Part shown: in pieces, positions 1,148 to 41,012 of the stretch
How the letters are laid out: each line of letters opens with the position of its first letter
Position numbering within the stretch: the stretch's first letter is position 1
Virus record (IMG/VR): IMGVR_UViG_3300033153_010090
Source of the DNA: an uncultured virus (IMG/VR IMGVR_UViG_3300033153_010090)
Taxonomy: Duplodnaviria > Heunggongvirae > Uroviricota > Caudoviricetes
Reading direction: 5' to 3' (one strand)
DNA length: 64,000 bases
Position numbers and translations under genes: made by a program
Notes under the pieces: generated by a model
What the model saw: the letters and a program-made list of their open reading frames with translations, nothing else
What the model was told of the DNA's origin: nothing
Databases searched by the model: none

Positions 1148-2299
1148 TTACGCAGTAAAGCTCTTGGTGCTGAGGAGCATGGGCAACTGACTAGCCACGC
1201 TCGCTAGACCCGGGGCAGCAATGACCGGGGCCGGCGCACCTAAAACGACCTGGGCTGTGGGGCAAACAAAAGTACTGATCTGTGCGATGAGACTGGAAAG
1301 CACGGCTACCAACTGGTCACCATGGACCAATGGGTGGGCAGCAGAGGGCCCACCCAGATGAATGGTTGCTCCGTCGATGAACATCTGGGCCGCAGCCTCC
1401 AGTGTGGCGGTGGTACCCGCCTTCAAGTTCACGTCGAGGTCGCTCTCAATGGAAGCAGACTGGGCCGATCTGTAACTCATCGTCCCGCCAACTTCCGTGC
1501 TGTGGTTCCCGTCGATGGTCTCAGTCCGGTTCCCGTGGACGAGAGAGGTTACATCCTTCTGGATCTCCCAGTTGACATTCCCCTCCTTGGTGATCTCTAA
1601 ACGCACCATAGTGTCCGCGTCCGCAGCGCCAGATGCCTTCACCAACATGTTCAGTGTAGTCTGGCTACCCTCCCCATGGGAACCAGCGGTCAGTTCGACG
1701 ATGTGCTCCTTATCGTTGGCCTTCTCCTTCACCAACAACGAGAACTTTGTCATGACGTCGCCGTCGGTGGTCTTCTCCGTCCGGTCCGCAAGCCAAGTCA
1801 GCTCCCCACCGAAGGTAAACAGCTGGTAGTTCTCACAAAAGTCACGAATGAAGTTCTGGATCGGGATGTACATTCGTTGTGCAGCGGAGGTCGCCCCAAT
1901 CTGCACGCCACCACCGCGGCGGAGGATGATGAAGTTCTCATCCCGAGTCTTCATCATCATGTCGCCCGGGTTTAACTGTGCACGATTCGAGGCGAAGTTG
2001 TCATTGTCTTCATCGTGTGGAGCCTGGAAGCCCAGGATGAATGGCACAGCGTGGAGACCCTCACTGGGGGTACAAACCCACACCAGCGCACCTATTTCAG
2101 GCACCGCATAGATGCCCTCGCCGTTGGTGTAGTGGAGGTAGGGGGTCATGATCTGGATGTCGAAGTACTTCTTGTCGCCATGCTCGGAGATGGCGTCGAC
2201 GGTCCAGTCCGCAATGTTGACGTTCGTGATCCTACCGGTCTCCACGACCGGTGAGATAAACTTGGTGTCCTGAATACCACGCGTCATCAGTACAACCAC
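1148..2299 (-). CDS. Baseplate central spike/hub protein (gp5/GpV-like)
   Basis: N-terminal OB-fold-like segment (VPEIGALVWV), beta-strand repeats (HGNRTETIDGNHSTEVGG), C-terminal HLGG..AHPLVHGDQL typical of contractile-tail spikes. Confidence 0.65.
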   Translation of the reverse strand: MVVLMTRGIQDTKFISPVVETGRITNVNIADWTVDAISEHGDKKYFDIQIMTPYLHYTNGEGIYAVPEIGALVWVCTPSEGLHAVPFILGFQAPHDEDNDNFASNRAQLNPGDMMMKTRDENFIILRRGGGVQIGATSAAQRMYIPIQNFIRDFCENYQLFTFGGELTWLADRTEKTTDGDVMTKFSLLVKEKANDKEHIVELTAGSHGEGSQTTLNMLVKASGAADADTMVRLEITKEGNVNWEIQKDVTSLVHGNRTETIDGNHSTEVGGTMSYRSAQSASIESDLDVNLKAGTTATLEAAAQMFIDGATIHLGGPSAAHPLVHGDQLVAVLSSLIAQISTFVCPTAQVVLGAPAPVIAAPGLASVASQLPMLLSTKSFTA

Positions 2300-8200: not shown

Positions 8201-8472
8201 TGAGCAATCGTGACTGTCTTGGCATCCTTCACCTTGCCGGTCGCCTTGTCACGGAGCTCGACCGTGGCCTTGACCGGAACAGTCCAACTACGACCCTTCA
8301 GCCGCGCGTCTTGCTGGCCGCGGATGTCGTCGATGTCCTTGTTGTCCTGGACGGTGACGTTCTTGATGGTGAGGGTATTCTTGGACCCCTCAACGGGGAA
8401 GTGCCCCTTGACCGCTTCAACCGTTCTCTCTTTCAGGGTCTCAAAGGCATCCTCTGGAGCGAAGTGAGCCAT
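2287..8472 (-). CDS. Single-polypeptide DNA-directed RNA polymerase, fused beta + beta-prime
   Basis: Beta motifs HTPEGKRIG, GLNFEDGIVIS, GDKVVGRHGNKGIV, YILKLHH; beta-prime motifs GRRQDMSMRSTI, KRDPVLH, NADFDGD, CAHGSGICAKC, AAQALGEPTTQLVLRSFH. Confidence 0.97.
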   Translation of the reverse strand: MAHFAPEDAFETLKERTVEAVKGHFPVEGSKNTLTIKNVTVQDNKDIDDIRGQQDARLKGRSWTVPVKATVELRDKATGKVKDAKTVTIAQLPKITRRYSHIVDGNEWQVGNQFRLKSGVYTRVKDNGELSSQWNLAEGLGFDMDFNPAKRQMTLGYNHSNVPVYPVLKAMGVDDKAMEKTWGSEVFEANKDVNEGQALRKLYKAMTGKTSDNLDEIRGHVKETFGNTKLLKDTTAKTLGQPFDKVSGEALLSGAGKLLRVSRQEDKPDDRDSLEFKALWSAEDLMQERLSKDARYDISRKLKNNIDRKDKVTDIVTPDTFGKPVKSFFTNSSFSERSDQRNPVGFLVGARKTTILGQHGIDSERRITLAAQSINPSHTGFLDPVHTPEGKRIGAVTQLSSGARKVGQDLKIPLVNLKTGKKEMVGPGAALNANIAFADQFKKVNGKLVPRSKQVEAVETGGDMMLLDPKKVDYVFDSTKGMYDVSSNMVPFLQNDQGNRSMVASRQLEQAVPLVHREQPLVQTRGDRGSTFEKAVGMLSAHHSPVAGTIERVGKQSIMVKDGKGKRHEVQLYDDFPLNDDKSVVNSTPLVKKGDKVKPGQTVADTSFTRDGTLSLGTNLRTAYMPWKGLNFEDGIVISETAAKKLTSEHLHRQATRSDENTILNKRKFLAETAGKVTRAQADKLDDDAVVRPGQLVESGDILIGELKKELLTPEQKQLALFSRKAAKPVRARPQTWEKDYPGMVSKVVKHGKDTTVYVKTQTPAEVGDKVVGRHGNKGIVTSVLADVEMPTFKDGTAAEILLNPAGIPGRINIGQAFETAASKIAEKTGKIYATNNFDPDVPDQAAKVMAELKQHGLSATEEMFDPQTKKPFKEKVLAGKQYILKLHHTAEKKLSARSRDTYTGNMTPQRGGPHGGQSMDASGMYALLAHGATANVREMQTIKSDMNDELWAKMQTGEPIPPPRVPFVYKKFESMLRGAGVNVKKDGNSLVLEPLTDKGTLALSNGEIKDPGRRLRAKDATPEKDGLFDPVVTGTRWPKGRFGDKWAHIKLSERMPNPTFEKPVRTLLGLNTKEFGSVMEGKVEIEGKTSAKAVVSALSKIDVEKDLGSLENSVADLRGAKLDTANKKIKFLRALKTAGLSPKEAYTMKYVPVLPANMRPISVMPNGDLNEADLNGIYAGGVGAPNHQLKTFDKGMPEEERHPLVNELYDGLKALNLTGMTYKRRHRSGIVEQIAGPRGKPPKLGFFQDKVIGRRQDMSMRSTIVPDPTLNLDEVGLPRKAASEMYKPFTVARMVRMGLSPLEAQKHIKEDSPTARRALEIEASNRPVLLKRDPVLHKQGVQAFRPQLVEGKTIKIHPLVTSGYNADFDGDTMSAFVPVTPAAVKEAHKMFPSNNLFSQSWGDIAYKPDHEAALGIFKLSQMGKKTKHVFATPAEAAKAAHLGKIDMTDVVTIKNISGKIEDPKSIVKTAAKPVKTTVGRLLLHNSLPEEVRDSKMLTDPKFEMTKSVLSKKLSEVARKKKGDYAQTTDNLKDLGNEYATGFSMGLEDFAPNRTERDRVLRSAKATETKIRSSKMTKKQKNDAVIKLYTKADEVISDRTKKQMQTSGNRMYDWVKSGSRGSWDQFKQLAIAPMLVLDSSGKTVPVPITKSYSEGLSAGQYWTAMHGARMGMIGKGRGTELPGALSKQMINTAINQVVTADDCETSKGITFGVDDTNALDRFTTKEIRFGVKGGKDKGKIPAGTLVTPEVMTRLKNNKVKEIPVRTPLKCAHGSGICAKCMGLNEDGQQFPKGDNVGIKAAQALGEPTTQLVLRSFHEGGVAGSKSAHAVGQFDRLKQLVELPEKVAGAATLSTMAGKIEKVDKDPAGGWNVQVGGQRHFVPGRNELAVKQGQAVKRGDALSSGPKNPRHMLPLTGIGSVQRYLTDEIVAVYNKKTPLHRRNAEVVVRSLTNLSAVNDPGSHYGLLRGDTTATSEINSFNSKLSAGKKPVQHTPILKGVNIMPLEMQTDWLARMQATRLKTSLEDGAAQGWKSNIHSRHPIPGMAYGKEFGLGTEQAPWLY

Positions 8473-10556: not shown

Positions 10557-11918
10557 ATGGTGGTTCCTGGGATTGTTGAGCGCATTGTGGCGCTCGTTGT
10601 CGCCGCAGGTGGAAAGGCACTGCTCGTTGGGGGAGCGGTAGTTGATCATCTGCAGGGCCGTGAGCCCAAAGACTGGGACATTGAGGTGTACGGTCTGCCC
10701 ATGTCCCGGGTGGAACAGTTGCTGACCGAGGCCGAGCTCAACCCGAAAGCTGTCGGGAAGGAGTTTGGCATCCTCAAGATCGGTGGGGATATTGAGGTGG
10801 ATGTCTCCGTCCCCCGCAGGGAGAACAAGATCGGGAAGGGTCATCGCGACTTTGCGGTGGAGCTCGACCCGAACATGACTCCCAAGGAGGCCGCTCGCCG
10901 GCGCGACCTCACGATCAACAGCATCGCCTATGACCTCAGTACGGGAGAGGTCATCGACCCCTGGGGCGGTGTTGAGGATCTGAAGGCCGGCATCATCCGC
11001 GCCACGGACCCGGAGACCTTTGTTGAGGACCCTCTCCGGGTCTTGCGCATCATGCAGCTACTCCCTCGCAAGGGGGACTCACTGGACGCTGCCACTCTTG
11101 GGCTGTGCAAGCGGCTTGAAGGTGAGTTCCAGAACCTCTCCCGCGAACGTGTGTTTGTGGAGTGGGAGAAGCTGCTGCTCAAGGCAGAGAAGCCCAGCAT
11201 TGGGCTGACCTTCTTGAGGGCGTGCGGATGGATCAGACACTTCCCTGAGCTCGCGGCACTCGTGGGCTGTGCGCAGCACCCGGAGTGGCACCCGGAGGGA
11301 GATGCCTGGCAGCACACCTTGGTGGTGTTGGACAACGCGGCCAAGGTGAGGGGCCAGCTGCCTGAGGAGTGGCGCCTCGGGTTCATGTTCGGAGCTCTGC
11401 TTCACGATGTGGGTAAGCCCTCCACCACCCTGGAGGACTTCACCAGTCGTGGTCATGACGCGGCGGGGTTGCCACTCGCTGAGGGGTTCATGAAGAGAGT
11501 CACGAACAGCAAGTCCCTACTCGAGCAGGTCGACAGCGTCGTTGGGCAGCACATGCAGCCCGGCAACCTCGAGCGGGGCAACGCCAAGGCCTCTGCCTGG
11601 CGCCGGCTGCAGAACAAGCTGCGGCTGGATGTGCTGGGGTGGATGAGCTTGTGCGACTGGGCTTGTGTCCCAGGCCGTGATGTTCTCGCGTCGAACGACC
11701 ACAAGCCCAGCAAACTGTGCTGGAAGTGGTTCGAGGACTTGGGAGCCACGGCTGAGAAGATCGAGTCTATCCTGGGAGGGAAGGACCTGGTCGCCGCTGG
11801 ATACAAGCCGGGCCCTGCGTTCGGGAAGGCTCTCCAGAAAGCCTACGAGGCTCAGATGGAGGGGATCACCAACCGGGGTGAGCTGCTTGCTATCGCAATC
11901 GAAGACCTCATCGCCTGA
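10557..11918 (+). CDS. cca: Class II tRNA nucleotidyltransferase (CCA-adding-like) with HD domain
   Basis: VGGAV.D...DWDIE, RRDLTINS, EDPLRVLR, HPEGD..HT, LLHDVGK, PGP.FG. Confidence 0.9.
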   Translation: MVVPGIVERIVALVVAAGGKALLVGGAVVDHLQGREPKDWDIEVYGLPMSRVEQLLTEAELNPKAVGKEFGILKIGGDIEVDVSVPRRENKIGKGHRDFAVELDPNMTPKEAARRRDLTINSIAYDLSTGEVIDPWGGVEDLKAGIIRATDPETFVEDPLRVLRIMQLLPRKGDSLDAATLGLCKRLEGEFQNLSRERVFVEWEKLLLKAEKPSIGLTFLRACGWIRHFPELAALVGCAQHPEWHPEGDAWQHTLVVLDNAAKVRGQLPEEWRLGFMFGALLHDVGKPSTTLEDFTSRGHDAAGLPLAEGFMKRVTNSKSLLEQVDSVVGQHMQPGNLERGNAKASAWRRLQNKLRLDVLGWMSLCDWACVPGRDVLASNDHKPSKLCWKWFEDLGATAEKIESILGGKDLVAAGYKPGPAFGKALQKAYEAQMEGITNRGELLAIAIEDLIA

Positions 11919-15861: not shown

Positions 15862-16718
15862 TTTGCAAGCTCCTTGAGCTGCTCCACCAGCTGCTGCCGA
15901 CGAAAAGCCATGTACCTGTAGGCTACCACGAGCTTCGCAGCTTGAACATCCTCTGCGGACTCGTCATCGATGTCCGCGGTTGGGGGCAGACGGAGAAGTT
16001 CAAGGTAGCGCTCCTTCACACCTGCGGGATCGCGGGTGAGGAACTCATCCCTGTTCTTCCCCACGTGTAGGGGGATCCACGGGGCAGGCTGCCCGTTCAG
16101 GTTGTGCTGATCCATGAAGCGACCTGTGCAGAAGTCACATCGGCCGTCATCATCATCGTCCACGGATTCGATGGTCCCGCAGTCCTTGCAGATGTAGCGC
16201 GGCCGTGACAGGTCCGTGCGGGCGAACTCCAGAGGAAGAGGAAGGTACATCACCCCGGACTCGACAGTGCAGGTGGCCACGTACTTGGAGACCTCCCCGC
16301 TGTACTCATCCTTCTTGATGTTGGCGGCGATGTCCACGCCGGCCATGAGCTGAGGGAGGGTGCAGATCTGGAGCGTGTCGAACTTGGGGATGTTGTTGTT
16401 CAACGCCTGGATGACCTTCTCAAACGACTCCCAATGCTCCCAGTAAACGTCGCTCGTGAGGAGAGTCCGGACTGCCTGGATCTTGTTCCAGTTGTGCTCA
16501 CTGATGCTGGTGGCCTTGAAGGTCTCAACGATCTCCCTCTTCAGAGTCGGAGGCTCCCACCAGATCCAGTCGGTCTCGAACTTTTCCATCAGCACCCAGG
16601 CCGCAGCCGCGGGGTGCATGTCGTGCCAGGCGAAGAAGCGGACGATGGGCTCCTCGGAAGCCCGTACCGCAGCCGGTGCTCGCTTGGGGTCAAGCCCCCA
16701 CTTCTCAAGGTCGCTCAC
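15846..16718 (-). CDS. Hypothetical protein with CxxC...CxxC
   Basis: AGGAG RBS, 290 aa, within the head operon. Confidence 0.75.
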   Translation of the reverse strand: MSDLEKWGLDPKRAPAAVRASEEPIVRFFAWHDMHPAAAAWVLMEKFETDWIWWEPPTLKREIVETFKATSISEHNWNKIQAVRTLLTSDVYWEHWESFEKVIQALNNNIPKFDTLQICTLPQLMAGVDIAANIKKDEYSGEVSKYVATCTVESGVMYLPLPLEFARTDLSRPRYICKDCGTIESVDDDDDGRCDFCTGRFMDQHNLNGQPAPWIPLHVGKNRDEFLTRDPAGVKERYLELLRLPPTADIDDESAEDVQAAKLVVAYRYMAFRRQQLVEQLKELAKWVTN

Positions 16719-33998: not shown

Positions 33999-34136
33999 AG
34001 CTAGCGCCTGATGCGTTCGAGGCGCTAGACCCTGACGAGCTCCGACTCCTGGCCGATGCGGCAGGGGTAGGGTACAAGGGGCTCACCGACGATGAGCTGC
34101 GAGCCAAGCTCGAACAAGCCTCCCAGTAACCTTCAA

Positions 34137-34170
34137 GCGTCCGCCTCCTACTCAGGGGGCGGGCGCATTT
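34137..34170 (+). terminator. Hairpin terminator
   Basis: GCGTCCGCCTCCT-ACTC-AGGGGGCGGGCGC-ATTT. Confidence 0.55.
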
Positions 34171-34184
34171 GGTATCATCAAACC

Positions 34185-34487
34185 ATGGACCTGAAGATTG
34201 CCAGCCCAGAGCGGCGCGCGGATGCACGGTTGCGGAGGATCATCAGCATGATCGCCTGTGAGCGAAAGCATCAGCAACGCCGGTGGACGGACGAGGCGGA
34301 CAAACGAAGGACACCAGCTGACTGGATTGCTGTGCTGTCGATCTTCATCGGCAAAGCAGCTATGGAGACCCCGCTCTACCAGGCGAAGCTCTCTACCACC
34401 AGCTTCAAGAAACGCATCGTTCAGATCGCGGCCATTTGCATGGCCATTCTCGAGGCCATCGACGAAGGCGGAACTGATGAAGGCTGA
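34185..34487 (+). CDS. MazG-like all-alpha fold protein lacking the acidic motif
   Basis: ER.HQ..RW, DWIAVL..GK, IVQIAAIC.AILE pattern. Confidence 0.55.
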   Translation: MDLKIASPERRADARLRRIISMIACERKHQQRRWTDEADKRRTPADWIAVLSIFIGKAAMETPLYQAKLSTTSFKKRIVQIAAICMAILEAIDEGGTDEG

Positions 34488-34818
34488 GAACTACGTCGTC
34501 TCCATGACGGCATTTGAGACTGCGCTCATTGCTCTGGTTCTGATGGGGGTGACCGCCATCGTTGGTGTCGGGACCGGCTTCTACTTCGGCGCCCGCCTCG
34601 CCGCCGCGGGAGTCGTGGACCACACAAACGAGGTGCTTCAACTGTGCAACAAGGTCGTCGACCACGAGGATGATCGCGTGACCGCGTGGAAGATGAACGG
34701 TGAGAGCTGTCAAGACGAAGTGGAGCGGTATCGCACCTGGCTCACCGACGTCGAAGACTCCACAAAGCTGAGAGCCACAGTGGCACACCCCAAGCGGACC
34801 AACCGCGGAGGGCAGTGA
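34477..34818 (+). CDS. Hypothetical membrane-anchored protein
   Basis: N-terminal hydrophobic helix. Confidence 0.65.
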   Translation: MKAENYVVSMTAFETALIALVLMGVTAIVGVGTGFYFGARLAAAGVVDHTNEVLQLCNKVVDHEDDRVTAWKMNGESCQDEVERYRTWLTDVEDSTKLRATVAHPKRTNRGGQ

Positions 34819-34821
34819 GCG

Positions 34822-34859
34822 GGCCCGGCAGGTGTAACAACCTGTCGGGCCTCTTTTTT
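34822..34859 (+). terminator. Intrinsic terminator between the replication block and the convergent tRNA array
   Basis: GGCCCGGCAGG...CCTGTCGGGCC-TCTTTTTT. Confidence 0.8.
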
Positions 34860-34862
34860 AGC

Positions 34863-34948
34863 TGGCAGAGGGTAGAGGAGTCGAACCCCCAACCTTTCGG
34901 CCGCCCCGGTTTTCGAGACCGGTTGCCACCCACGTAGCAGTACCCTCT
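34863..34948 (-). tRNA. tRNA-Ser(CGA)
   Basis: Cloverleaf, loop CT-CGA-AA, long variable arm, GCCA. Confidence 0.9.
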
Positions 34949-34953
34949 TCATA

Positions 34954-35025
34954 TCGGGGTGGGCGGGTTCGAACCGCCGACCTCTCGGTCCCCGACCGAG
35001 CGCCCTACCACTGGGCCACACCCCG
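34954..35025 (-). tRNA. tRNA-Pro(GGG), C33, no encoded CCA
   Basis: CGGGGTG acceptor, loop TC-GGG-GA. Confidence 0.88.
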
Positions 35026-35090
35026 TTGTCGCTCACTGACCTCCTTCTCGTGACACACAAACCTCGTTGTTGCTCACCAGTGATCAGCTA

Positions 35091-35164
35091 TCGGGATGGT
35101 GGGGCTCGAACCCACGACCTCCGGCTCCCGAAGCCGGCGCGCTACCAACCTGCGCTACATCCCG
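35091..35164 (-). tRNA. tRNA-Pro(CGG), no encoded CCA
   Basis: Loop TT-CGG-GA. Confidence 0.92.
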
Positions 35165-35241
35165 TGGTCGGAGAGACAGGGATTGAACCTGCGACCCCCG
35201 GCTCCCAAAGCCGGTGCTCTACCAAACTGAGCTACTCTCCG
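35165..35241 (-). tRNA. tRNA-Pro(TGG)
   Basis: Loop TT-TGG-GA, ACCA. Confidence 0.95.
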
Positions 35242-35245
35242 ATAA

Positions 35246-35337
35246 TGGCGGAGCGTGAGGGATTCGAACCCCCGCGACCCGTGAAGGCCGACCTCGGGTT
35301 AGCAACCCGGCGCTTTGCCAGACTCAGCCAACGCTCC
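35246..35337 (-). tRNA. tRNA-Ser(GCT)
   Basis: Loop TT-GCT-AA, long variable arm, GCCA. Confidence 0.92.
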
Positions 35338-35343
35338 GTAGGA

Positions 35344-35454
35344 CTAGAGCGCTGGCGTACTCGGGGGTGGGTACGAGGAGGATGAGGGCGAGGGCAGACG
35401 ACCGGCGTTGAAGTGGTCGACAAAGAACAGAGCTGCCATCGTGTAGCGGAACAT
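35344..35454 (-). CDS. Leader peptide of tRNA unit 3 (MFRYTMAALFFVDHFNAGRLPSPSSSSYPPPSTPAL)
   Basis: AGGAGGG RBS; 12 of the last 16 codons are Ser/Pro; stop lies 6 nt before tRNA-Ser(GCT). Confidence 0.8.
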   Translation of the reverse strand: MFRYTMAALFFVDHFNAGRLPSPSSSSYPPPSTPAL

Positions 35455-35474
35455 GATGTTCCCTCCTACCTTTC

Positions 35475-35502
35475 AGTATCGGCATCTCCGTCGAGATGTC
35501 AA
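35475..35502 (-). promoter_or_regulatory. Sigma70-like promoter of tRNA unit 3
   Basis: TTGACA-N16-GATACT. Confidence 0.7.
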
Positions 35503-35510
35503 CAAGAAAT

Positions 35511-35586
35511 TGGGGTGACCGACGGGGTTTGAACCCGCGACCTTCCGGGCCACAGCCGGACGCTCTACCACTGAGCTACGGCCACC
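35511..35586 (-). tRNA. tRNA-His(GTG)
   Basis: Loop CT-GTG-GC, G-1 encoded, CCCA. Confidence 0.95.
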
Positions 35587-35589
35587 ACA

Positions 35590-35666
35590 TGGTGATGCCG
35601 ACCGGGCTTGAACCGGCTCTCACCGGCTTGAAAGGCCGGCGGCTCGACCCCTTCGCCTTCGGCACC
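35590..35666 (-). tRNA. tRNA-Glu(TTC), atypical D arm
   Basis: Loop CT-TTC-AA, A at position 8, ACCA. Confidence 0.8.
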
Positions 35667-35669
35667 ACA

Positions 35670-35745
35670 TGGTGGAATCGGAGGGACTCGAACCCTCGAC
35701 CCCCTGTCTGCCAGACAGGTGCTCTCCCAGCTGAGCTACGACCCC
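35670..35745 (-). tRNA. tRNA-Ala(GGC)
   Basis: Loop CT-GGC-AG, G3:U70. Confidence 0.95.
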
Positions 35746-35746
35746 A

Positions 35747-35856
35747 TACCGACCCGTTGACTTGGCTGCTGGCTATTGGCACCGCGCACGGGTCAACACG
35801 CGCTACCGGACCAGCAGTTGCCCCTCCGCTCCTGTTCGCGACCAAGAGCTTCGGTA
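35747..35856 (-). ncRNA. Unclassified structured RNA (~110 nt) between two tRNA-Ala genes
   Basis: Nested pairings TACCGA/TCGGTA, CTTGG/CCAAG, CTGCTGG/CCAGCAG, GCGCG/TGCGC. Confidence 0.45.
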
Positions 35857-35934
35857 TGGTGGACGGGAAGGGATTCGAACCCTCGACCGGCTGGGTGCAA
35901 ACCAGCTGCTCTCCCGGACTGAGCTACCGCGCCC
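35857..35934 (-). tRNA. tRNA-Ala(TGC)
   Basis: Loop TT-TGC-AC, G3:U70, one bulged acceptor base. Confidence 0.9.
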
Positions 35935-35937
35935 ACA

Positions 35938-36012
35938 TGGTACTCGTGGCGGGAATTGAACCCGCGTTACCGGCGTGAGAGGCCGGCGTCCTTACCCCTA
36001 GACGACACGAGC
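35938..36012 (-). tRNA. tRNA-Glu(CTC)
   Basis: Loop CT-CTC-AC. Confidence 0.93.
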
Positions 36013-36036
36013 ACAAACCTTGATCAATCCCTCCTT

Positions 36037-36112
36037 TGGAGCTGGTGAGAGGACTCGAACCTCCAACCTGCTGATTACAAATCAGCTGCTCTACCAGTTG
36101 AGCTACACCAGC
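36037..36112 (-). tRNA. tRNA-Thr(TGT)
   Basis: Loop TT-TGT-AA, TCCA. Confidence 0.95.
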
Positions 36113-36115
36113 ATG

Positions 36116-36180
36116 CGGGGAGCACGAGGATCGAACTCGCAACACCCCCGGCCCAGGGCGTTACCCCTAGCGGACTCCCC
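36116..36180 (-). ncRNA. tRNA-like RNA without a canonical anticodon loop
   Basis: Acceptor GGGGAGT/GCTCCCC, T arm GCGAG-TTCGATC-CTCGT, anticodon arm reduced to CCCT-GGGCC-GGGG. Confidence 0.6.
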
Positions 36181-36184
36181 GAAC

Positions 36185-36260
36185 TGGAGCTGGTGGAGGG
36201 AGTCGAACCCCCGGCCTGCTCATTACGAGTGAGCTGCTCTACCTACTGAGCTACACCAGC
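36185..36260 (-). tRNA. tRNA-Thr(CGT)
   Basis: Loop CT-CGT-AA. Confidence 0.95.
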
Positions 36261-36458
36261 ATCGCCCTTTCTGTTCTCCAAGATTCCTTTGCACGTCTTG
36301 CACGTCACTTCGCCGTCGTGTCTGGTGTGAGTGATGTATGTCTTCCAATCCAACACGATCCCACACAAAGTGATGTCTGCATCTTCAGACCCATGAGACG
36401 GACCGTACAGGGTGTCTTCTTTTGCTCTCACCCTTCGGACTGTATACCGCACATTCAC
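36243..36458 (-). CDS. Small zinc-binding protein (71 aa) inside the tRNA array
   Basis: AAGGAGGG + GTG; H...TLCG...VTCKTC; stop lies inside tRNA-Thr(CGT). Confidence 0.65.
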   Translation of the reverse strand: MNVRYTVRRVRAKEDTLYGPSHGSEDADITLCGIVLDWKTYITHTRHDGEVTCKTCKGILENRKGDAGVAQ

Positions 36459-36469
36459 AGCGCCCTCCT

Positions 36470-36545
36470 TGGAGCTGGGGACCGGGTACGATCCGGTGAC
36501 CTCTCCCGTACCAGGGGAGTGCTCTACCAACTGAGCTACCCCAGC
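36470..36545 (-). tRNA. tRNA-Thr(GGT)
   Basis: Loop CT-GGT-AC; T loop ATCGTAC. Confidence 0.92.
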
Positions 36546-36548
36546 ATA

Positions 36549-36620
36549 TGCCCGAACCTGGGTTTGAACCAGGGACACCCGGCGTGTCGAGCCGGAGCTC
36601 TACCACTGAGCTACCCGGGC
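36549..36620 (-). tRNA. tRNA-Val(GAC), C33, no encoded CCA
   Basis: Loop TC-GAC-AC. Confidence 0.88.
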
Positions 36621-36622
36621 AC

Positions 36623-36698
36623 TGGAGCACGTGACGGGGTTCGAACCCGTGACCTCAGCCTTGGCAAGGCTACGCTCTACCAACTGAGCTACACGCAC
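36623..36698 (-). tRNA. tRNA-Gly(GCC)
   Basis: Loop TT-GCC-AA, TCCA. Confidence 0.95.
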
Positions 36699-36700
36699 AC

Positions 36701-37108
36701 CTACGCTGCCTTCTTCATCCGGTCGAAGTACTGCCGCATCACCGACGCCTTCACCTCGGCGTACGTCAAACCCAGGGCCTGCGCCATGGGCCAGAAGCAC
36801 TGCTTCATCGTACGCTCACGTCCGTCTGCCTTCTCGTAGAGATCGAGCACTGAGCACTGCACACGCCCCTCGAACCGCAGATCACCCTCGAGCTCTTCGA
36901 TGAGGCACGATGTGTACCCGTTGCGCTTGCGATTGGCCGCGGTGAGCGGAGCCACCTTCGCCAACAGGTCCTTGAGCGCTGCACGCGCACCCTCGTCGAG
37001 CTTCTTGAACTCGCCCCCGTACTTGACGTACAGCTCGTCGACCTTGTTGCGCACGACGTCGTGCTTCCAGTTCATGCGGAACTTCTTGCCGCCTACGGTG
37101 ATCAACAT
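36701..37108 (-). CDS. Hypothetical protein inside the tRNA array
   Basis: AGGAGAGGGAG RBS, phage-like codon usage. Confidence 0.75.
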   Translation of the reverse strand: MLITVGGKKFRMNWKHDVVRNKVDELYVKYGGEFKKLDEGARAALKDLLAKVAPLTAANRKRNGYTSCLIEELEGDLRFEGRVQCSVLDLYEKADGRERTMKQCFWPMAQALGLTYAEVKASVMRQYFDRMKKAA

Positions 37109-37121
37109 CTCCCTCTCCTGT

Positions 37122-37337
37122 TCAGCTTGCGCTGAGCTGCAGTCCTCGTCCCAAGACGAAGAGGTTCTTGGCCAAGCACCGGACGACCTTGCCCGGCGCC
37201 TTCTCCACCATCACAGCGTCGAGGCCACGATCTGTGGTGTACCCGACGACCTTGCCGTTGAACGGCCCCTTCATACGACATCCCTTCTTCGTCCGCACCG
37301 GAGTACCGACGGGGAAAGCAACTTTGACACTCATCAC
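37122..37337 (-). CDS. Small beta-barrel (KOW/SH3-like) hypothetical protein
   Basis: AAAGGAGG RBS; FPVGTPVR...GPF.GKVVG. Confidence 0.6.
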   Translation of the reverse strand: MMSVKVAFPVGTPVRTKKGCRMKGPFNGKVVGYTTDRGLDAVMVEKAPGKVVRCLAKNLFVLGRGLQLSAS

Positions 37338-37350
37338 GGCCTCCTTTCTT

Positions 37351-37427
37351 TGGTGGGCTCGGAGGGAATCGAACCCCCGACATGCCGATTAAGAGTCGGC
37401 TGCTCTACCTAGCTGAGCTACGAACCC
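37351..37427 (-). tRNA. tRNA-Lys(CTT)
   Basis: Loop CT-CTT-AA. Confidence 0.95.
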
Positions 37428-37428
37428 A

Positions 37429-37506
37429 TGGTGGGGGCGGTCGGCATCGAACCGACGACCTCCCGGTTAAAAGCCGGGTGCTGCTGCCGCGCTGAGCTAC
37501 GCCCCC
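37429..37506 (-). tRNA. tRNA-Lys(TTT)
   Basis: Loop CT-TTT-AA; irregular D stem. Confidence 0.9.
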
Positions 37507-37612
37507 TAGCGCTTCAGTCGCCCCGGTTTCAACCGTTCCCACGTGTCCTCAGTCATCAGCACAATGTCTCTCCTCGGAAACCACGGACTCTTCAACCACT
37601 CGAAAAAACTCT

Positions 37613-37690
37613 TGGTGCCCTCGACAGGACTCGAACCTGCGACCTCCACGTCCGGAGCGTGGCGCTCTGAATCCACTGAGCTACGAAGGC
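37613..37690 (-). tRNA. tRNA-Arg(CCG)
   Basis: Loop CT-CCG-GA. Confidence 0.95.
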
Positions 37691-37693
37691 ATA

Positions 37694-37771
37694 TGGCGCC
37701 CCCGGTAGGATTCGAACCCACGACCCGCCGGTTAGAAGCCGGCTGCTCTAAATCCACTGAGCTACGGAGGC
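37694..37771 (-). tRNA. tRNA-Arg(TCT)
   Basis: Loop CT-TCT-AA. Confidence 0.95.
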
Positions 37772-37812
37772 GCAACTTGTTCATGCCGATCTCCTCCGTC
37801 GCCTGCCAACAA

Positions 37813-37887
37813 TGGTGGGCGCCCAGGGATTCGAACCCAGGACCGTTCGGTTATGAGCCGAGTGCTCTACCGCTAAGCTATGCGCCC
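37813..37887 (-). tRNA. tRNA(CAT), probably Ile2 (lysidine); elongator Met not excluded
   Basis: Loop CT-CAT-AA; GGGCGC acceptor typical of Ile2. Confidence 0.8.
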
Positions 37888-37907
37888 ACAACACCATCTC
37901 GTCTCCT

Positions 37908-37982
37908 TGGAGCCTGTACTCGGGTTCGAACCGAGGACATCCAGCTTGGAAGGCTGGCGTTCTACCACTGAACTACACAGGC
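37908..37982 (-). tRNA. tRNA-Gly(TCC)
   Basis: Loop CT-TCC-AA, TCCA. Confidence 0.95.
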
Positions 37983-37990
37983 TCATCTAG

Positions 37991-38064
37991 TGCCCAGTGC
38001 AGGGTTCGAACCTGCGCCCTCCGCTGTGTGAAAGCGGCGCTCTACCAAACTGAGCTACCCGGGC
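37991..38064 (-). tRNA. tRNA-Val(CAC), no encoded CCA
   Basis: Loop TT-CAC-AC, 3' A-CTA. Confidence 0.9.
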
Positions 38065-38081
38065 TCACTCCTTTCGATCTC

Positions 38082-38132
38082 GAGGAGGGAGGCTGGCGGG
38101 TCCAGCCATCTGTGACCTCAGCCTCCCTCCTC
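38082..38132. repeat. Long hairpin spacer
   Basis: 14-bp perfect stem GAGGAGGGAGGCTG/CAGCCTCCCTCCTC. Confidence 0.8.
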
Positions 38133-38137
38133 ACAAC

Positions 38138-38214
38138 TGGTACCCCGGGGTGGAATTGAACCACCGGCCCCTCGCTTATCAGGCGAGTGCTCTAGACCCC
38201 TGAGCTACCGGGGC
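38138..38214 (-). tRNA. tRNA-Ile(GAT)
   Basis: Loop CT-GAT-AA. Confidence 0.95.
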
Positions 38215-38259
38215 GAATACTCCCCGGGCGGTAGGCCCGGGGCGCACCGCCCATCAAAC

Positions 38260-38334
38260 TGGTAGCGGCGGAGGGATTCGAACCCTCGACTTCCGGGTTA
38301 TGAGCCCGGCGAGCTACCACTGCTCCACGCCGCA
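38260..38334 (-). tRNA. Initiator tRNA-fMet(CAT)
   Basis: 1:72 mismatch, three G-C pairs in the anticodon stem. Confidence 0.92.
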
Positions 38335-38346
38335 TCACCAACTCCT

Positions 38347-38422
38347 TGGAAGAGGCGGAGGGGCTCGAACCCCCAACCACCAGGATCAAAGCCTGGTGCT
38401 CTACCTGTTGAGCTACGCCTCT
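38347..38422 (-). tRNA. tRNA-Gln(TTG)
   Basis: Loop CT-TTG-AT. Confidence 0.92.
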
Positions 38423-38426
38423 AACC

Positions 38427-38502
38427 TGGCTGGGGCGGCAGGGATCGAACCTGCGACCTTCCGGGTCAGAGCCGACTGCTCTACCAGCTGAGCTACGCCC
38501 CA
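38427..38502 (-). tRNA. tRNA-Gln(CTG)
   Basis: Loop CT-CTG-AC, U1-A72. Confidence 0.92.
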
Positions 38503-38511
38503 TCATCAACC

Positions 38512-38590
38512 TGGCACCCCGAGCAGGACTCGAACCTGCGACCTCCTGATTCGTAGTCAGGCGCTCTGAATCCAACTGAGCTACCGAGGC
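38512..38590 (-). tRNA. tRNA-Arg(ACG)
   Basis: Loop CT-ACG-AA. Confidence 0.95.
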
Positions 38591-38600
38591 ACAACAAAAG

Positions 38601-38679
38601 TGGCGGGGCCGACGGGATTTGAACCCGCGGTCTCCTGAGTGACAGTCAGGCGAAGACGGCCAGACTCTTCCACGGCCCC
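38601..38679 (-). tRNA. tRNA-Asp(GTC)
   Basis: Loop CT-GTC-AC, GCCA. Confidence 0.95.
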
Positions 38680-38766
38680 ACAAGGTGGTGGTCGCAGCGT
38701 AGGTGTCCGTCAGCCAGGTGTCGTTACGGTTTGTCCGTGGTCGGGATCCCAGAGCTGGTGGACAGT

Positions 38767-38895
38767 TTACGCTGCCCTGGGATCTCGAAAAGGATGCTGT
38801 CCCTCGATACCGCGGACCGCAACCATCTTCGCCACGGCTGTTGCCGTAGCGGTTCTGGCTTCTTTGCTGGTCCGTATGGTTTGCACGAGTGACAT
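38767..38895 (-). CDS. Leader peptide of tRNA unit 2 (MSLVQTIRTSKEARTATATAVAKMVAVRGIEGQHPFRDPRAA)
   Basis: ATG 7 nt after the -10 box (probably leaderless); 34 different codons in 42; covers all 23 downstream tRNAs. Confidence 0.75.
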   Translation of the reverse strand: MSLVQTIRTSKEARTATATAVAKMVAVRGIEGQHPFRDPRAA

Positions 38896-38902
38896 CTTCT
38901 TC

Positions 38903-38932
38903 AAGGTAAAGGATTGTGGTTCTGAAAGTCAA
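38903..38932 (-). promoter_or_regulatory. Sigma70-like promoter of tRNA unit 2
   Basis: TTGACT-N18-TACCTT with A-rich upstream DNA. Confidence 0.6.
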
Positions 38933-38981
38933 CAACCTTTTTCTCGTCGCTACTCTTTTTTCGACGAGGTTCATATATATG

Positions 38982-39052
38982 AGTGCGGTACTGGATTCGA
39001 ACCAGTGTAGTTGGGGTTGCAACCCAACACCTCGCCTCTCGGACAACCGCAC
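38982..39052 (-). tRNA. tRNA-Cys(GCA), no encoded CCA
   Basis: Loop TT-GCA-AC, U73. Confidence 0.9.
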
Positions 39053-39053
39053 A

Positions 39054-39139
39054 TGGAGGAGGGTGAGGGATTTGAACCCCCGGAACTTTCGCCCTCACGC
39101 TTTCTAAGCGTGCGCCTTCAACCACTCGGCCAACCCTCC
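39054..39139 (-). tRNA. tRNA-Ser(AGA)
   Basis: CACGC-TT-AGA-AA-GCGTG, Ser-type body with long variable arm. Confidence 0.88.
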
Positions 39140-39141
39140 AC

Positions 39142-39219
39142 TGGTACCGGGAGAGGGAGTCGAACCCTCAGAGAACTGGGTTTTGAATCCAGCGCGTCTA
39201 CCAATTCCGCCACCCCGGC
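39142..39219 (-). tRNA. tRNA-Leu(CAA), short variable loop
   Basis: Loop TT-CAA-AA, Leu-type D arm. Confidence 0.9.
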
Positions 39220-39305
39220 GCTATACTCCTTTCGATCCCTCAACGACATCTATCTTGAGGGAGGCGCAAGGCCCCCCAGGTGTCGACCCGGGGGGCCTTC
39301 TTCTT

Positions 39306-39382
39306 TGGTACCCGGCCCGGGACTCGAACCCGGAAACTCTCGGACCTGAACCGAGCGACTGTGCCAGTTCGCCTAGCCGGGC
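39306..39382 (-). tRNA. tRNA-Leu(CAG), short variable loop
   Basis: Loop TT-CAG-GT. Confidence 0.88.
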
Positions 39383-39388
39383 ACATGA

Positions 39389-39469
39389 TGTAGCGGGATG
39401 GATTTGAACCACCGACCTTTCGGTACTCGGGGGTTACAGCCCCGTGCCTTACCACTCGGCCACCGCTAC
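39389..39469 (-). tRNA. tRNA-Tyr(GTA), no encoded CCA
   Basis: Loop CT-GTA-AC, variable arm, 3' A-TCA. Confidence 0.92.
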
Positions 39470-39472
39470 ACA

Positions 39473-39561
39473 TGGTGTCGGAGGAGGGACTTGAACCCAC
39501 ACGACCCTTTCGGGCCACCGGCTCCTCGGGCCGGCGCGTCTACCAGTTCCGCCACTCCGAC
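39473..39561 (-). tRNA. tRNA-Leu(GAG), C33
   Basis: Loop CC-GAG-GA, long variable arm. Confidence 0.9.
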
Positions 39562-39595
39562 ACATCATTCTTTCTCGTCGCCACTCACCTCAGTT

Positions 39596-39673
39596 TGGTA
39601 CGGGTGAAGGGACTCGAACCCTCAGAGACCCGGGTCTTAAACCCAGCGCATGTACCGATTCTGCGACACCCGC
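39596..39673 (-). tRNA. tRNA-Leu(TAA), short variable loop
   Basis: Loop TT-TAA-GA. Confidence 0.88.
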
Positions 39674-39678
39674 ATGGT

Positions 39679-39754
39679 TGGTGGGCCGGGGCGGATTCGA
39701 ACCGCCGACGCGCGGCTCTTCAGGCCGCCGCTCTACCGACTGAGCTACCGACCC
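39679..39754 (-). tRNA. tRNA-Phe(GAA)
   Basis: Loop CT-GAA-GA. Confidence 0.95.
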
Positions 39755-39816
39755 GCATAAGCGGATGGCGCAGCCGATAAATCGAGTTGTGAGCGTCTTC
39801 GTCATCAGTGCCCTCA

Positions 39817-39891
39817 TGGCAGGCGGCCAAGGAATCGAACCTTGCTGACGGCTGGATTTGGAGTCCGACCCGCTTACCCAGAGCGCCGCCC
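39817..39891 (-). tRNA. tRNA-Trp(CCA), non-canonical compact fold
   Basis: Loop CT-CCA-AA, G73-CCA, no 8/9 connector, extended anticodon stem. Confidence 0.8.
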
Positions 39892-39896
39892 AAAGG

Positions 39897-39972
39897 TGGC
39901 TCCAGGGGAGGGACTCGAACCCCCGACCAGGCGGTTAACAGCCGCCCGCTCTACCAGCTGAGCTACCCTGGA
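39897..39972 (-). tRNA. tRNA-Asn(GTT)
   Basis: Loop CT-GTT-AA, U1-A72, GCCA. Confidence 0.95.
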
Positions 39973-39982
39973 ACAGTTGGGG

Positions 39983-40102
39983 CTAGCGCCAGCTCGTATT
40001 CAGTCGGGGATACAAAAATAGGGAGTCGAGACAAAGAAGTAAGGAGCTCGACGTGGGGGATCGAGGAGTGGTGCGTGCGATGATGGTCTGTTCGGTACGC
40101 AT
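39983..40102 (-). CDS. Leader peptide of tRNA unit 1 (MRTEQTIIARTTPRSPTSSSLLLCLDSLFLYPRLNTSWR)
   Basis: AGGAG RBS; all six Leu codons plus Cys, Phe, Tyr, Asn, Trp and Ser codons; stop lies 10 nt before tRNA-Asn. Confidence 0.82.
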   Translation of the reverse strand: MRTEQTIIARTTPRSPTSSSLLLCLDSLFLYPRLNTSWR

Positions 40103-40119
40103 GGCTGTCTCCTAGTTTC

Positions 40120-40148
40120 AGGATGCACAGTCACATTCGATCTGTCAA
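40120..40148 (-). promoter_or_regulatory. Sigma70-like promoter of tRNA unit 1
   Basis: TTGACA-N17-CATCCT. Confidence 0.65.
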
Positions 40149-40645
40149 TACCAATTTTGAATGGCCAGATAAATACCCGCGGTCAAAGATGAGGCAATGA
40201 CAATCCACCCGGGTATGCGTAGCCACCAAGGGGAGATACCAAAGTCCGCCGCGGCCTTCTGCAGGTCAGTGAACGAACTGCTACCCCACGACCCAACCCA
40301 CAGGTCAATGAGGCCCCCACCGAGAACAACGAGCCACCCGGCCCACATCCAGTCAGGCCAGTAGCTGAAGAACGGGAAGGCCACTGCGGGGATGATGTTG
40401 GCAAGTCGCGGAGCCAGACTGATCCATCCCTGCTCGTGATCTCGCATCGGCCGGTACAGCGTCTTGCTGTTGCACGCCCACCGCCAACCGCCTTTGTACC
40501 GGTGCGGGATGACCTTGATCTCCCAGCTCTTCACCCCAACAAGGTGGTCCGCCACGACGACGTGAAGGAGCTCATGGATGTAGGCCCAGAAGAGGAAGGT
40601 GGGAACGAACCCGACGACCAGGATGATGACGAGCTGGATGATCAT
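40145..40645 (-). CDS. Membrane protein with HExxH (M50/zincin-like metallopeptidase)
   Basis: IHELLHVV, ISLAP, several transmembrane segments. Confidence 0.65.
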   Translation of the reverse strand: MIIQLVIILVVGFVPTFLFWAYIHELLHVVVADHLVGVKSWEIKVIPHRYKGGWRWACNSKTLYRPMRDHEQGWISLAPRLANIIPAVAFPFFSYWPDWMWAGWLVVLGGGLIDLWVGSWGSSSFTDLQKAAADFGISPWWLRIPGWIVIASSLTAGIYLAIQNWY

Positions 40646-40652
40646 GGCAGTA

Positions 40653-40961
40653 TCAGTTCCAACCCTCGACGCCAGTGACGAACTTCTGACGCTTCACGTT
40701 CTGTGTCATCGGATTCCACTTGGCGGTCTGAGTGACACCGCGCGCGTTGGTGCCAGTGCCCTTGCTCACAGCCTGCTGGATGGTCTTGCCGTGCCCTTTG
40801 AACGACGGAGTGAACCCAGAAGACTTCAAGGCCTTGGGCTTGAACAGCTTGCCAACACCCTTGGCGGCGCCAGCAACCATCGAGCCAAGGCCCGCATCCT
40901 TCTCGAAGCCATTGATGTACGCGAGCTCGTCGACAAAAGCTGCCATCATGATGGGATTCAT
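40653..40961 (-). CDS. Small putative virion internal protein
   Basis: AFVDELAYINGFEKDAG motif; AAAGGAG RBS. Confidence 0.7.
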   Translation of the reverse strand: MNPIMMAAFVDELAYINGFEKDAGLGSMVAGAAKGVGKLFKPKALKSSGFTPSFKGHGKTIQQAVSKGTGTNARGVTQTAKWNPMTQNVKRQKFVTGVEGWN

Positions 40962-41012
40962 AGTCAGCTCCTTTCGTGCCTCAGTGATACCACGGGTGGA
41001 GGTGGGGAGGAA

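Follow-up and report, generated by a model that had tools for sequence, protein, structure and literature searches.

A codon-matched leader reading frame ahead of a serine/proline tRNA unit in a phage tRNA array: a candidate sensor of decoding capacity

What sets the output of the tRNA genes that a phage carries with it? Little is known about how phages control their own tRNAs, and tRNA genes are commonly regarded as untranslated units controlled by growth rate. This question is raised by a stretch of 64,000 nucleotides from an uncultured virus of the Caudoviricetes (IMG/VR record IMGVR_UViG_3300033153_010090), which we analysed as a whole and refer to as the window. It carries 38 tRNA genes between positions 34863 and 39972, all of them on the minus strand, and these 38 genes in 5.1 kb form a tRNA array as defined in PMC4758250 (at least 20 genes at a density of at least 2 per kb). 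The final five genes of this array form a unit for serine and proline, and a short open reading frame (ORF) with a Ser/Pro tract near its end, which we call leader 3, stops immediately upstream of it. An earlier note on this DNA had pointed out leader 3 and the match of its Ser/Pro tract to the unit. Conservation in distant relatives and the parallel leaders at other tRNA units lend strong support to its core idea of a codon-matched, translated leader, and judging from sequence we consider it probable (roughly 0.6) that leader 3 senses decoding capacity by way of the ribosome and thereby tunes the output of the tRNA unit.

Leader 3 and its counterparts in relatives

The positions of leader 3, its signals and its tRNA genes are given in Table 1. 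It can be seen that the layout described by the earlier note was correct: the stop codon lies 6 nt before tRNA-Ser(GCT) and the unit reads Ser-GCT, Pro-TGG, Pro-CGG, Pro-GGG, Ser-CGA. A codon read-out reproduced exactly the string that had been noted for codons 21-34 (CCC TCG CCC TCA TCC TCC TCG TAC CCA CCC CCG AGT ACG CCA) and the 20 codons free of Ser and Pro that precede it. The background frequency of Ser plus Pro was 0.111 (14 long ORFs of the window), against which the 12/16 found in the tail of leader 3 correspond to a binomial p of 4 × 10−9. Such a density of 12/16 is reached at just three places across all six frames of the window. When the codons were assigned to the tRNAs of the unit, CCC (three times) matched Pro-GGG, CCA (twice) Pro-TGG, CCG Pro-CGG, TCG (twice) Ser-CGA and AGT Ser-GCT; TCA and TCC (twice) have no cognate tRNA in the unit. 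The run of three prolines is indeed spelled with one codon per Pro isoacceptor (CCA CCC CCG).

Distant relatives were recruited by an alignment of RecA relatives, which brought in IMG/VR contigs. We searched 15 records for tRNAs and found five with arrays of at least 17 tRNAs, two of which contain a separate Ser/Pro unit (G005, locus L113, and G007, locus L114). The RecA protein of the window is 45% identical to that of either record, and the two share 55% identity with each other. Here, we found a leader ahead of each unit. The L113 leader (MNTTFNEARLVHAALLQLCPSSSSPSPSQPPSPRS) stops 8 nt before Ser-GCT of a Ser-GCT/Pro-TGG/Pro-CGG/Ser-TGA unit, and the L114 leader (MLMLNETRARLNCNLAVLCPSSSSPSPSPSPSSPLSR) stops 8 nt before Ser-GCT of a Ser-GCT/Pro-TGG/Pro-CGG/Pro-GGG/Ser-TGA unit. 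Both are preceded by a promoter of the form TTGACG-N17-TAnnnT (−10 hexamers TACGGT in L113 and TACATT in L114) and by the ribosome-binding site GGAGGACG, which is followed by ATG and by 35 or 37 codons. After 19 codons free of Ser and Pro, these leaders end in the tails CPSSSSPSPSQPPSPRS or CPSSSSPSPSPSPSSPLSR. Thus, cognate codons cluster near the ORF end in all three Ser/Pro leaders (12/16, 14/16 and 15/18 Ser plus Pro), and their 19-20 N-terminal codons include neither amino acid (0/58, p about 10−3). The N-terminal halves barely align among the three, but length, frame and stop position are kept. In each of the three units, every tRNA has a cognate codon in its leader. TCC TCC is common to all three, and AGY serine codons (one, three and three) stand beside TCN codons. 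Because both kinds of serine codon are used, the tract is more than a mere pyrimidine run. Judged by the sequences compared, the resemblance of the L113 and L114 leaders to leader 3 is not due to chance. The suggestion of the earlier note that the PPP run could report the status of elongation factor P (EF-P) did not extend to the family. PPP is present in the window and in two predicted proteins described below (P0121, P0122), the L113 leader has PP only and the L114 leader no PP; because PPP is kept only among the near relatives of the window, an EF-P role does not characterize the family.

In the window, L113 and L114 a short ORF with start codon and ribosome-binding site lies right behind the promoter, which corresponds to the build of an attenuator. 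The upstream neighbour of the leader 3 promoter is tRNA-His (3' end at 35511). This promoter was the sole match in a sigma70-like scan of positions 34000-41000, but the count alone (1 found, 1.4 expected) was not significant, and a search with the exact 28-nt promoter pattern gave no matches. The Shine-Dalgarno (SD) sequence of leader 3 is of the phage's normal kind, since a GGAGG-type site stands ahead of most long ORFs in the window. An inverted repeat in the promoter spacer had been considered as a possible operator. The repeat itself is present, but its sequence is not conserved and an operator function found no support: at this place L113 carries another repeat, of 5 bp, that of L114 is weak and one close relative breaks a pair. 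According to our own estimate, a 6-bp repeat within about 30 nt arises by chance in about 4% of cases. Short U-rich trailers, which may be processing signals, were observed right after tRNA 3' ends at 14212-14225 in L113 (CCAAUUUUG), at 3652-3661 in L114 (CCAACUUUUCUC) and at 35503-35510 in the window (CCAAUUUCUUG).

As control, a 15-nt motif of the Ser-GCT anticodon arm was run against IMG/VR (at least 120 matches). We retrieved the DNA of 80 loci, and tRNA-Ser(GCT) was called in 51 of them. At the 50 other tRNA-Ser(GCT) loci among the matches listed (G005 excluded), the best Ser plus Pro count was 5/16, compared with 12, 14 and 14 for the three leaders. A Ser/Pro-rich ORF ending at most 30 nt upstream was present at none of these 50 control loci, and many lacked any such ORF. 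The pattern Ser-GCT followed by Pro-TGG matched G005 and G007 only in IMG/VR and had no match in a set of one genome per prokaryote species. Cultured-phage records contained no relative of the leader and matched tRNA parts only, and IMG/VR single-protein scans with three neighbouring ORFs of the window gave no matches. In L114, a 247-nt insert (3247-3493, minus strand) separates Pro-CGG from Pro-GGG, where the window has 65 nt; it holds an ORF with a ribosome-binding site, and this ORF apparently adjoins or overlaps the tRNA that follows.

When two very large protein collections were searched with profiles, leader 3 had exactly two matches, both of them gene-caller predictions (P0121, MFRYTMAALFFVDYFNAGRLPSPSSPSYPPPSTPTL; P0122, MFRYTMAVLLYTTDHFFAGRLPSPSTSSSYPPPSTPSL), and no Pfam or other homologue beyond the clade. 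Contigs that are about 97% identical across the leader 3 region come from runs labelled marine sediment metagenome. We compared close-relative contigs from four runs over positions 35150-35620; the leader was spanned by X1 record 1, X2 record 9 and X3 record 17. The −35 and −10 hexamers, the SD sequence, the ATG and the stop codon were all unchanged. Within the ORF there were nine distinct differences, all transitions, and six of them are synonymous in the leader 3 frame (codons 9, 11, 17, 25, 26 at its third position, and 34), compared with four and none in the other two frames. With a chance synonymous share of 34% for transitions, this gives a binomial p of 0.049. The nonsynonymous changes are H14Y, S26P and A35T, and thus the sole replacement within the tract exchanges Ser for Pro. 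Conservation and these signs of coding constraint are best explained if leader 3 is a genuine upstream ORF (uORF) that is translated and has its own host-type promoter.

Codon-matched leaders at other tRNA units

The array of the window starts with a unit for Asn, Trp, Phe, four Leu, Tyr, Ser and Cys, and a longer ORF (leader 1, Table 1) precedes it. Among the last 22 residues of leader 1, 17 match this unit and include all seven amino acid types (N, W, F, L, Y, S, C), which places this stretch in the top 10−4 of stop-free windows. Its Leu codons are TTA, CTT, CTC, CTA, TTG and CTG. Upstream of the Leu-only units of L113 and L114 we detected short ORFs encoding MNAMARILSRLRGPHLCAGLLSLLR and MQRDHRVLSLLRGPHLSTGLLSLLR, respectively, with the Leu codons CTG, TTA, CTA, CTT and TTG; the L113 unit consists of Leu-GAG, CAG, CAA and TAA. 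A pattern search with these Leu leaders matched G005 and G007 only. Their −10 hexamer lies just 6 nt upstream of the ATG, and their mRNAs are possibly leaderless. TTA is rare in genes of the window (1% of Leu codons) and occurs in all three Leu-bearing leaders, which would happen by chance with a probability of about 3 × 10−4. A hairpin at the stop codon of the Leu leaders seems to covary, with UUA paired to UAA in L113 and CUA to UAG in L114.

A third class precedes the His-Cys-Gln-Gln-Tyr units of L113 and L114. These leaders contain QQHYCH at the end (L113) and YQHCHQY inside (L114), so that the composition is equal and the order different, and both Gln codons are used. Their stops lie 83 and 107 nt before the tRNA, and GC-rich hairpins stand just 5' of the tRNA; none of the folds carries a U-run terminator.

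We also carried out a blind screen, in which the best 7-codon window was scored ahead of every unit that comprises no more than five amino acid types, and both-strand upstream regions of units sharing no amino acid with the tested unit served as null. The three Ser/Pro units and the His unit of L114 came out on top with 7/7 each, a score that was reached by none of 98-104 null regions. The L113 His unit scored 5/7 (6/104 null regions). Taken together, these sequence data are best explained by a clade family of codon-matched leader ORFs (Ser/Pro, Leu, His-Cys-Gln-Tyr and composite) to which leader 3 would belong.

Two more ORFs of the window are ambiguous. A 42-codon ORF (38767-38895, minus strand) lies behind TTGACT-N17-TTACCT and before an Asp...Lys unit; it uses the two Gln codons, the two Lys codons and several codons for Arg, and shows no overall enrichment. 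A 71-codon ORF (36243-36458, minus strand) with AGGAGG and a GTG start is rich in Thr, His and Glu near its end and overlaps tRNA-Thr(CGT) by 18 nt; it could be a small protein or a further leader. Two protein ORFs without Pfam match (36701-37108, 135 amino acids, and 37122-37337, 71 amino acids, both on the minus strand) were found inside the array, and the former stops 2 nt upstream of tRNA-Gly(GCC).

Outside the array, the window encodes phage-type replication and transcription genes, including a family A DNA polymerase, a DnaB-like helicase and a RecA-like protein. A 134-kb contig also encodes the latter, whose nearest relatives (about 55% identity) come from metagenomic contigs that reach about 200 kb. 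Among 80 metagenome loci around RecA relatives, 25 were scanned and none had a tRNA within 10 kb. A protein of 2061 amino acids (2287-8472, minus strand) unites Rpb2 (beta) and Rpb1 (beta') domains in a single chain and is thus a fused, phage-encoded RNA polymerase of the multisubunit type. A protein of the CCA-adding enzyme/poly(A) polymerase family with an HD domain (10557-11918, plus strand) fits a phage that invests in tRNAs.

Table 1. Coordinates of leader 3, of its tRNA unit and of the other leaders (positions refer to the window unless L113 or L114 is named)
Feature	Position	Strand	Remarks
−35 hexamer TTGACA	35497..35502	-	TTGACG at the same place in L113 and L114; unchanged in covering close-relative contigs
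Inverted repeat CATCTC-GACG-GAGATG in promoter spacer	35483..35498	-	read from sequence; position 35488 altered in run X1
−10 hexamer GATACT, 16-nt spacer	35475..35480	-	unchanged in close relatives
Shine-Dalgarno sequence AGGAGG	35462..35467	-	7 nt 5' of ATG
Leader 3 ORF, 36 codons and TAG	35344..35454	-	product MFRYTMAALFFVDHFNAGRLPSPSSSSYPPPSTPAL; ATG at 35454, TAG end at 35344
Ser/Pro tract, codons 21-34	35353..35394	-	12/14 Ser or Pro; C-rich, G-poor
Leader tail GCCAGCGCUCU, candidate anti-acceptor strand	35346..35356	-	complementary to tRNA-Ser positions 1-11
Stop-to-tRNA spacer, 6 nt	35338..35343	-	L113 and L114 have 8 nt; run X3 is longer by one base
tRNA-Ser(GCT), head of Ser/Pro unit	35246..35337	-	no listed difference in runs X1-X3
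tRNA-Pro(TGG)	35165..35241	-	
tRNA-Pro(CGG)	35091..35164	-	
tRNA-Pro(GGG)	34954..35025	-	
tRNA-Ser(CGA)	34863..34948	-	final gene of the unit and of the whole array
13-bp GC-rich hairpin just past Ser/Pro unit	34821..34852		terminator score for a plus-strand gene; minus strand without U run
Leader 1, 39-codon ORF	39983..40102	-	MRTEQTIIARTTPRSPTSSSLLLCLDSLFLYPRLNTSWR; AGGAG before ATG; stop 10 nt before tRNA-Asn, first tRNA of the array
TTGACA upstream of leader 1	40143-40148	-	
Leu leader, L113, 25 codons	11774-11851	+	upstream of Leu-only unit
Leu leader, L114, 25 codons	about 5754-5831	-	upstream of Leu-only unit
Leader of His-Cys-Gln-Gln-Tyr unit, L113	about 16414-16485	+	MSRASKARDLLMAPLRGQQHYCH
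Leader of His-Cys-Gln-Gln-Tyr unit, L114	about 2551-2601	-	MVSRFYQHCHQYPAQA

Proposed mechanism and alternatives

We propose that a ribosome reading leader 3 would sense the decoding of its Ser and Pro codons and that its position would set the output of the tRNA unit. Slow reading would indicate too little cognate aminoacyl-tRNA, and a ribosome held on the tract would keep the transcript productive. Fast reading and release would lead to attenuation, and the net effect would be a negative feedback on tRNA supply. Two output steps may be envisaged. The C-rich, G-poor Ser/Pro tract may serve as a Rho loading site that is shielded by the ribosome, as in tnaC, speFL and cruR, or, when no ribosome covers it, the tail of the leader may pair with the 5' acceptor strand of tRNA-Ser(GCT). 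We consider Rho shielding the more likely output step for the unit as a whole.

In terms of composition, a C-rich and G-poor region resembling a Rho utilization (Rut) site was found in or beside the uORF. The excess of C over G, expressed as (C−G)/40, was 0.45, 0.35 and 0.45 in the three Ser/Pro leaders (top 0.01-0.3% of windows), and the value of 0.45 for the tract of the window falls in the top 0.01%. All eight leaders examined have a C>G stretch in the top 7%; in leader 1 this stretch lies outside the matched codons. For the second output step, we found that the helix between the leader tail and tRNA-Ser is part of the minimum free energy (MFE) fold of the window and is equalled by 9 of 2000 shuffles. 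It would compete with the acceptor stem, and its support is modest. In L113 and L114, GCCACCG and GCCACUG, respectively, pair with tRNA-Ser positions 5-11. The variable tail codon (GCG, CCG, CUG) is complementary to positions 5-7 of each phage's own tRNA, and two tail changes in close relatives preserve the pairing with tRNA-Ser.

Several results weigh against a ribosome-mediated sensor or narrow its possible mode of action. On the minus strand, no intrinsic terminator (hairpin plus U run) was found between the leader 3 ORF and the tRNA. Classical attenuation is therefore excluded, because the leader lacks hairpin and U run and 6-8 nt are too short for one. Leader 3 alone folds no better than its shuffles (z −0.21), the C-rich tract follows automatically from Ser and Pro codons, and the phage encodes its own RNA polymerase. 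In L113 and L114, 27 bases of the tract are identical, which indicates a constraint at the RNA level as well. The tail helix is weak in these two loci (286 and 149 of 2000 shuffles were as good), and a MAFFT alignment puts the helix of the window at non-homologous codons, so that this lead is suggestive only. Among the other leaders, leader 1 had no homologue in the protein collection and the Leu leaders were not significant in the blind screen (4/7, 28/108 null regions). No leader was detected at the Lys-Lys, Ala-Glu-His and Gly-Val-Thr units of the window, the last of which stands behind the 135-amino acid ORF, or at the Glu, Asp, Arg and lone Tyr units of L113. About 45 units in three remoter relatives (L237-L239) yielded no convincing leader; the hints obtained there were an ORF of L238 that is rich in Leu, carries GGAGG and precedes a Leu unit, and a Lys/Tyr match of 4/7.

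The identical tract bases lead to an alternative in which the element acts as RNA: a conserved C-rich tract, serving as Rho loading or processing site or as anti-SD partner, would be combined with a tRNA-pairing tail, and the Ser/Pro frame would be a by-product. The extreme C>G skew speaks for it, and so does the fact that L113 and L114, whose tRNA-Ser genes differ, agree fully in the SD segment GGAGGACGTCAT as well as in the 27 tract bases. In addition, the SD sequence GGAGGACG and CGTCCTCC are perfect complements. However, the resulting SD:anti-SD helix does not go beyond shuffles (85-95/1000) and does not occur in the window. An RNA element does not account for AGY serine codons within the tract, nor for ATG, SD spacing, length (35-37 codons) and stop position being kept despite N-terminal halves that cannot be aligned. 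The synonymous excess is confined to the leader frame, and other leader classes keep composition but not order (QQHYCH vs. YQHCHQY). We therefore regard this alternative as unlikely.

An equally unlikely alternative retains translation and reverses the sign of the control. Here, the tail would trap the 5' acceptor strand of tRNA-Ser(GCT) and a ribosome reaching the stop codon would melt this trap. Good decoding of Ser and Pro would then release the first tRNA, which would make the leader a feed-forward or commitment switch and not a homeostat. This is in line with the tail helix in the MFE fold and its rank among the shuffles, with the fit of the variable codon to each phage's own acceptor stem and with the position of the stop codon 6-8 nt from the RNase P site, where the footprint of a terminating ribosome is large enough to cover the cleavage site. 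On the other hand, one tRNA only would be affected, leaders stopping 74-107 nt upstream would be left unexplained, the helix is weak in L113 and L114, and the tRNA fold should prevail at equilibrium.

With a slightly lower probability still, leader 3 might encode a small protein with a Ser/Pro tail and a function independent of the tRNAs, and its position before the Ser/Pro unit would reflect linkage only. The ORF is conserved and gene-called in metagenomes, and a weak (F/L)N..R motif stands just before the tract. Composition, however, is conserved rather than sequence, there are no Pfam or other homologues outside the clade, and linkage would leave three further classes of unit-matched leaders unexplained. 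Finally, it is very improbable that leader 3 is an ORF that arose by chance in a GC-rich spacer serving only as the site of an internal promoter, since the conservation and the enrichment statistics contradict it, even if short ORFs are common in DNA of 60% GC and the promoter count does not exceed that of shuffles.

We thus favour the ribosome-mediated sensor of decoding capacity for leader 3. Its extension to the clade is tentative, and we put it somewhat below an even chance: the tRNA arrays might be composed of self-governing modules, each with its own promoter and a leader that spells out its isoacceptors, in which the speed of the ribosome on the leader sets the output via Rho shielding and/or an anti-acceptor hairpin and without a classical terminator. 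If this were true, the modular leaders would form a phage-borne homeostat that answers codon-usage mismatch, starvation, and depletion or cleavage of host tRNAs. It would explain why the arrays are split into amino acid-pure sub-units with internal promoters, and it would extend the leader-peptide principle from amino acid supply to tRNA supply. It would also offer a handle on the question of whether phages produce their tRNAs on demand, for instance when host tRNAs are scarce or destroyed by defence nucleases, and such short, modular elements could serve as codon-specific sensors of decoding capacity.

Comparison with known systems

Leader-peptide attenuation is known from trpL, hisL, leuL, pheL and thrL and from pheM of pheST. 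With these classical attenuators leader 3 shares the build, a short promoter-proximal ORF with cognate codons near its end. In PMC1183508, an attenuation leader is described as a promoter-proximal short ORF with regulatory codons clustered near the end, which gauges charged cognate tRNA. Unlike the classical examples, leader 3 has neither a terminator of hairpin and U run nor, with 6-8 nt, the room for one, and it is found in a phage. It precedes five tRNA genes instead of biosynthetic or synthetase genes, and a single leader lists several amino acids and several isoacceptors. Full-text searches of the literature outside subscription journals turned up leader peptides before biosynthetic, transporter and resistance genes and none before tRNA genes. 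Papers of the 1980s on the E. coli tRNA-Phe genes pheU and pheV may discuss attenuator-like upstream regions and are thus a possible precedent.

Closer to the proposed output step are the uORF-dependent Rho attenuators (tnaC, speFL, cruR, mgtL, corL). As outlined in PMC12360218, a ribosome held on the uORF shields an adjacent or internal Rut site and thereby permits downstream transcription. Leader 3 resembles them in that its own 3' half is strongly C-rich and G-poor. In the known cases, either a ligand or an arrest peptide acting at the stop codon stalls the ribosome; in leader 3 the stall would come from scarcity of cognate tRNA. The targets differ as well, since those of leader 3 are tRNA genes, and the term 'tRNA operon' is absent from this review. 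A related system for proline is mgtP of the Salmonella mgtCBR operon, a short ORF rich in proline codons that raises downstream transcription when proline-charged tRNA-Pro drops (PMC3641672); mgtP controls Mg2+ transport and virulence genes via stem-loops in a long leader. Leader 3 differs from mgtP in that Ser and Pro codons are mixed, the stop codon lies 6 nt before a tRNA and the genes that follow are Ser and Pro tRNA genes.

When positions 34000-41000 were compared with Rfam (E up to 1), only tRNAs were detected and neither a T-box nor another family was present. In T-box riboswitches, the status of a tRNA sets the expression of genes that supply translation with the same amino acid. Leader 3 shares this logic, but a T-box binds the tRNA directly and without translation, and leader 3 gave no match to its covariance model. 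In the same full-text searches, no tRNA array with codon-matched leader ORFs before its sub-units was encountered, and in this respect the array of this phage differs from those found there.

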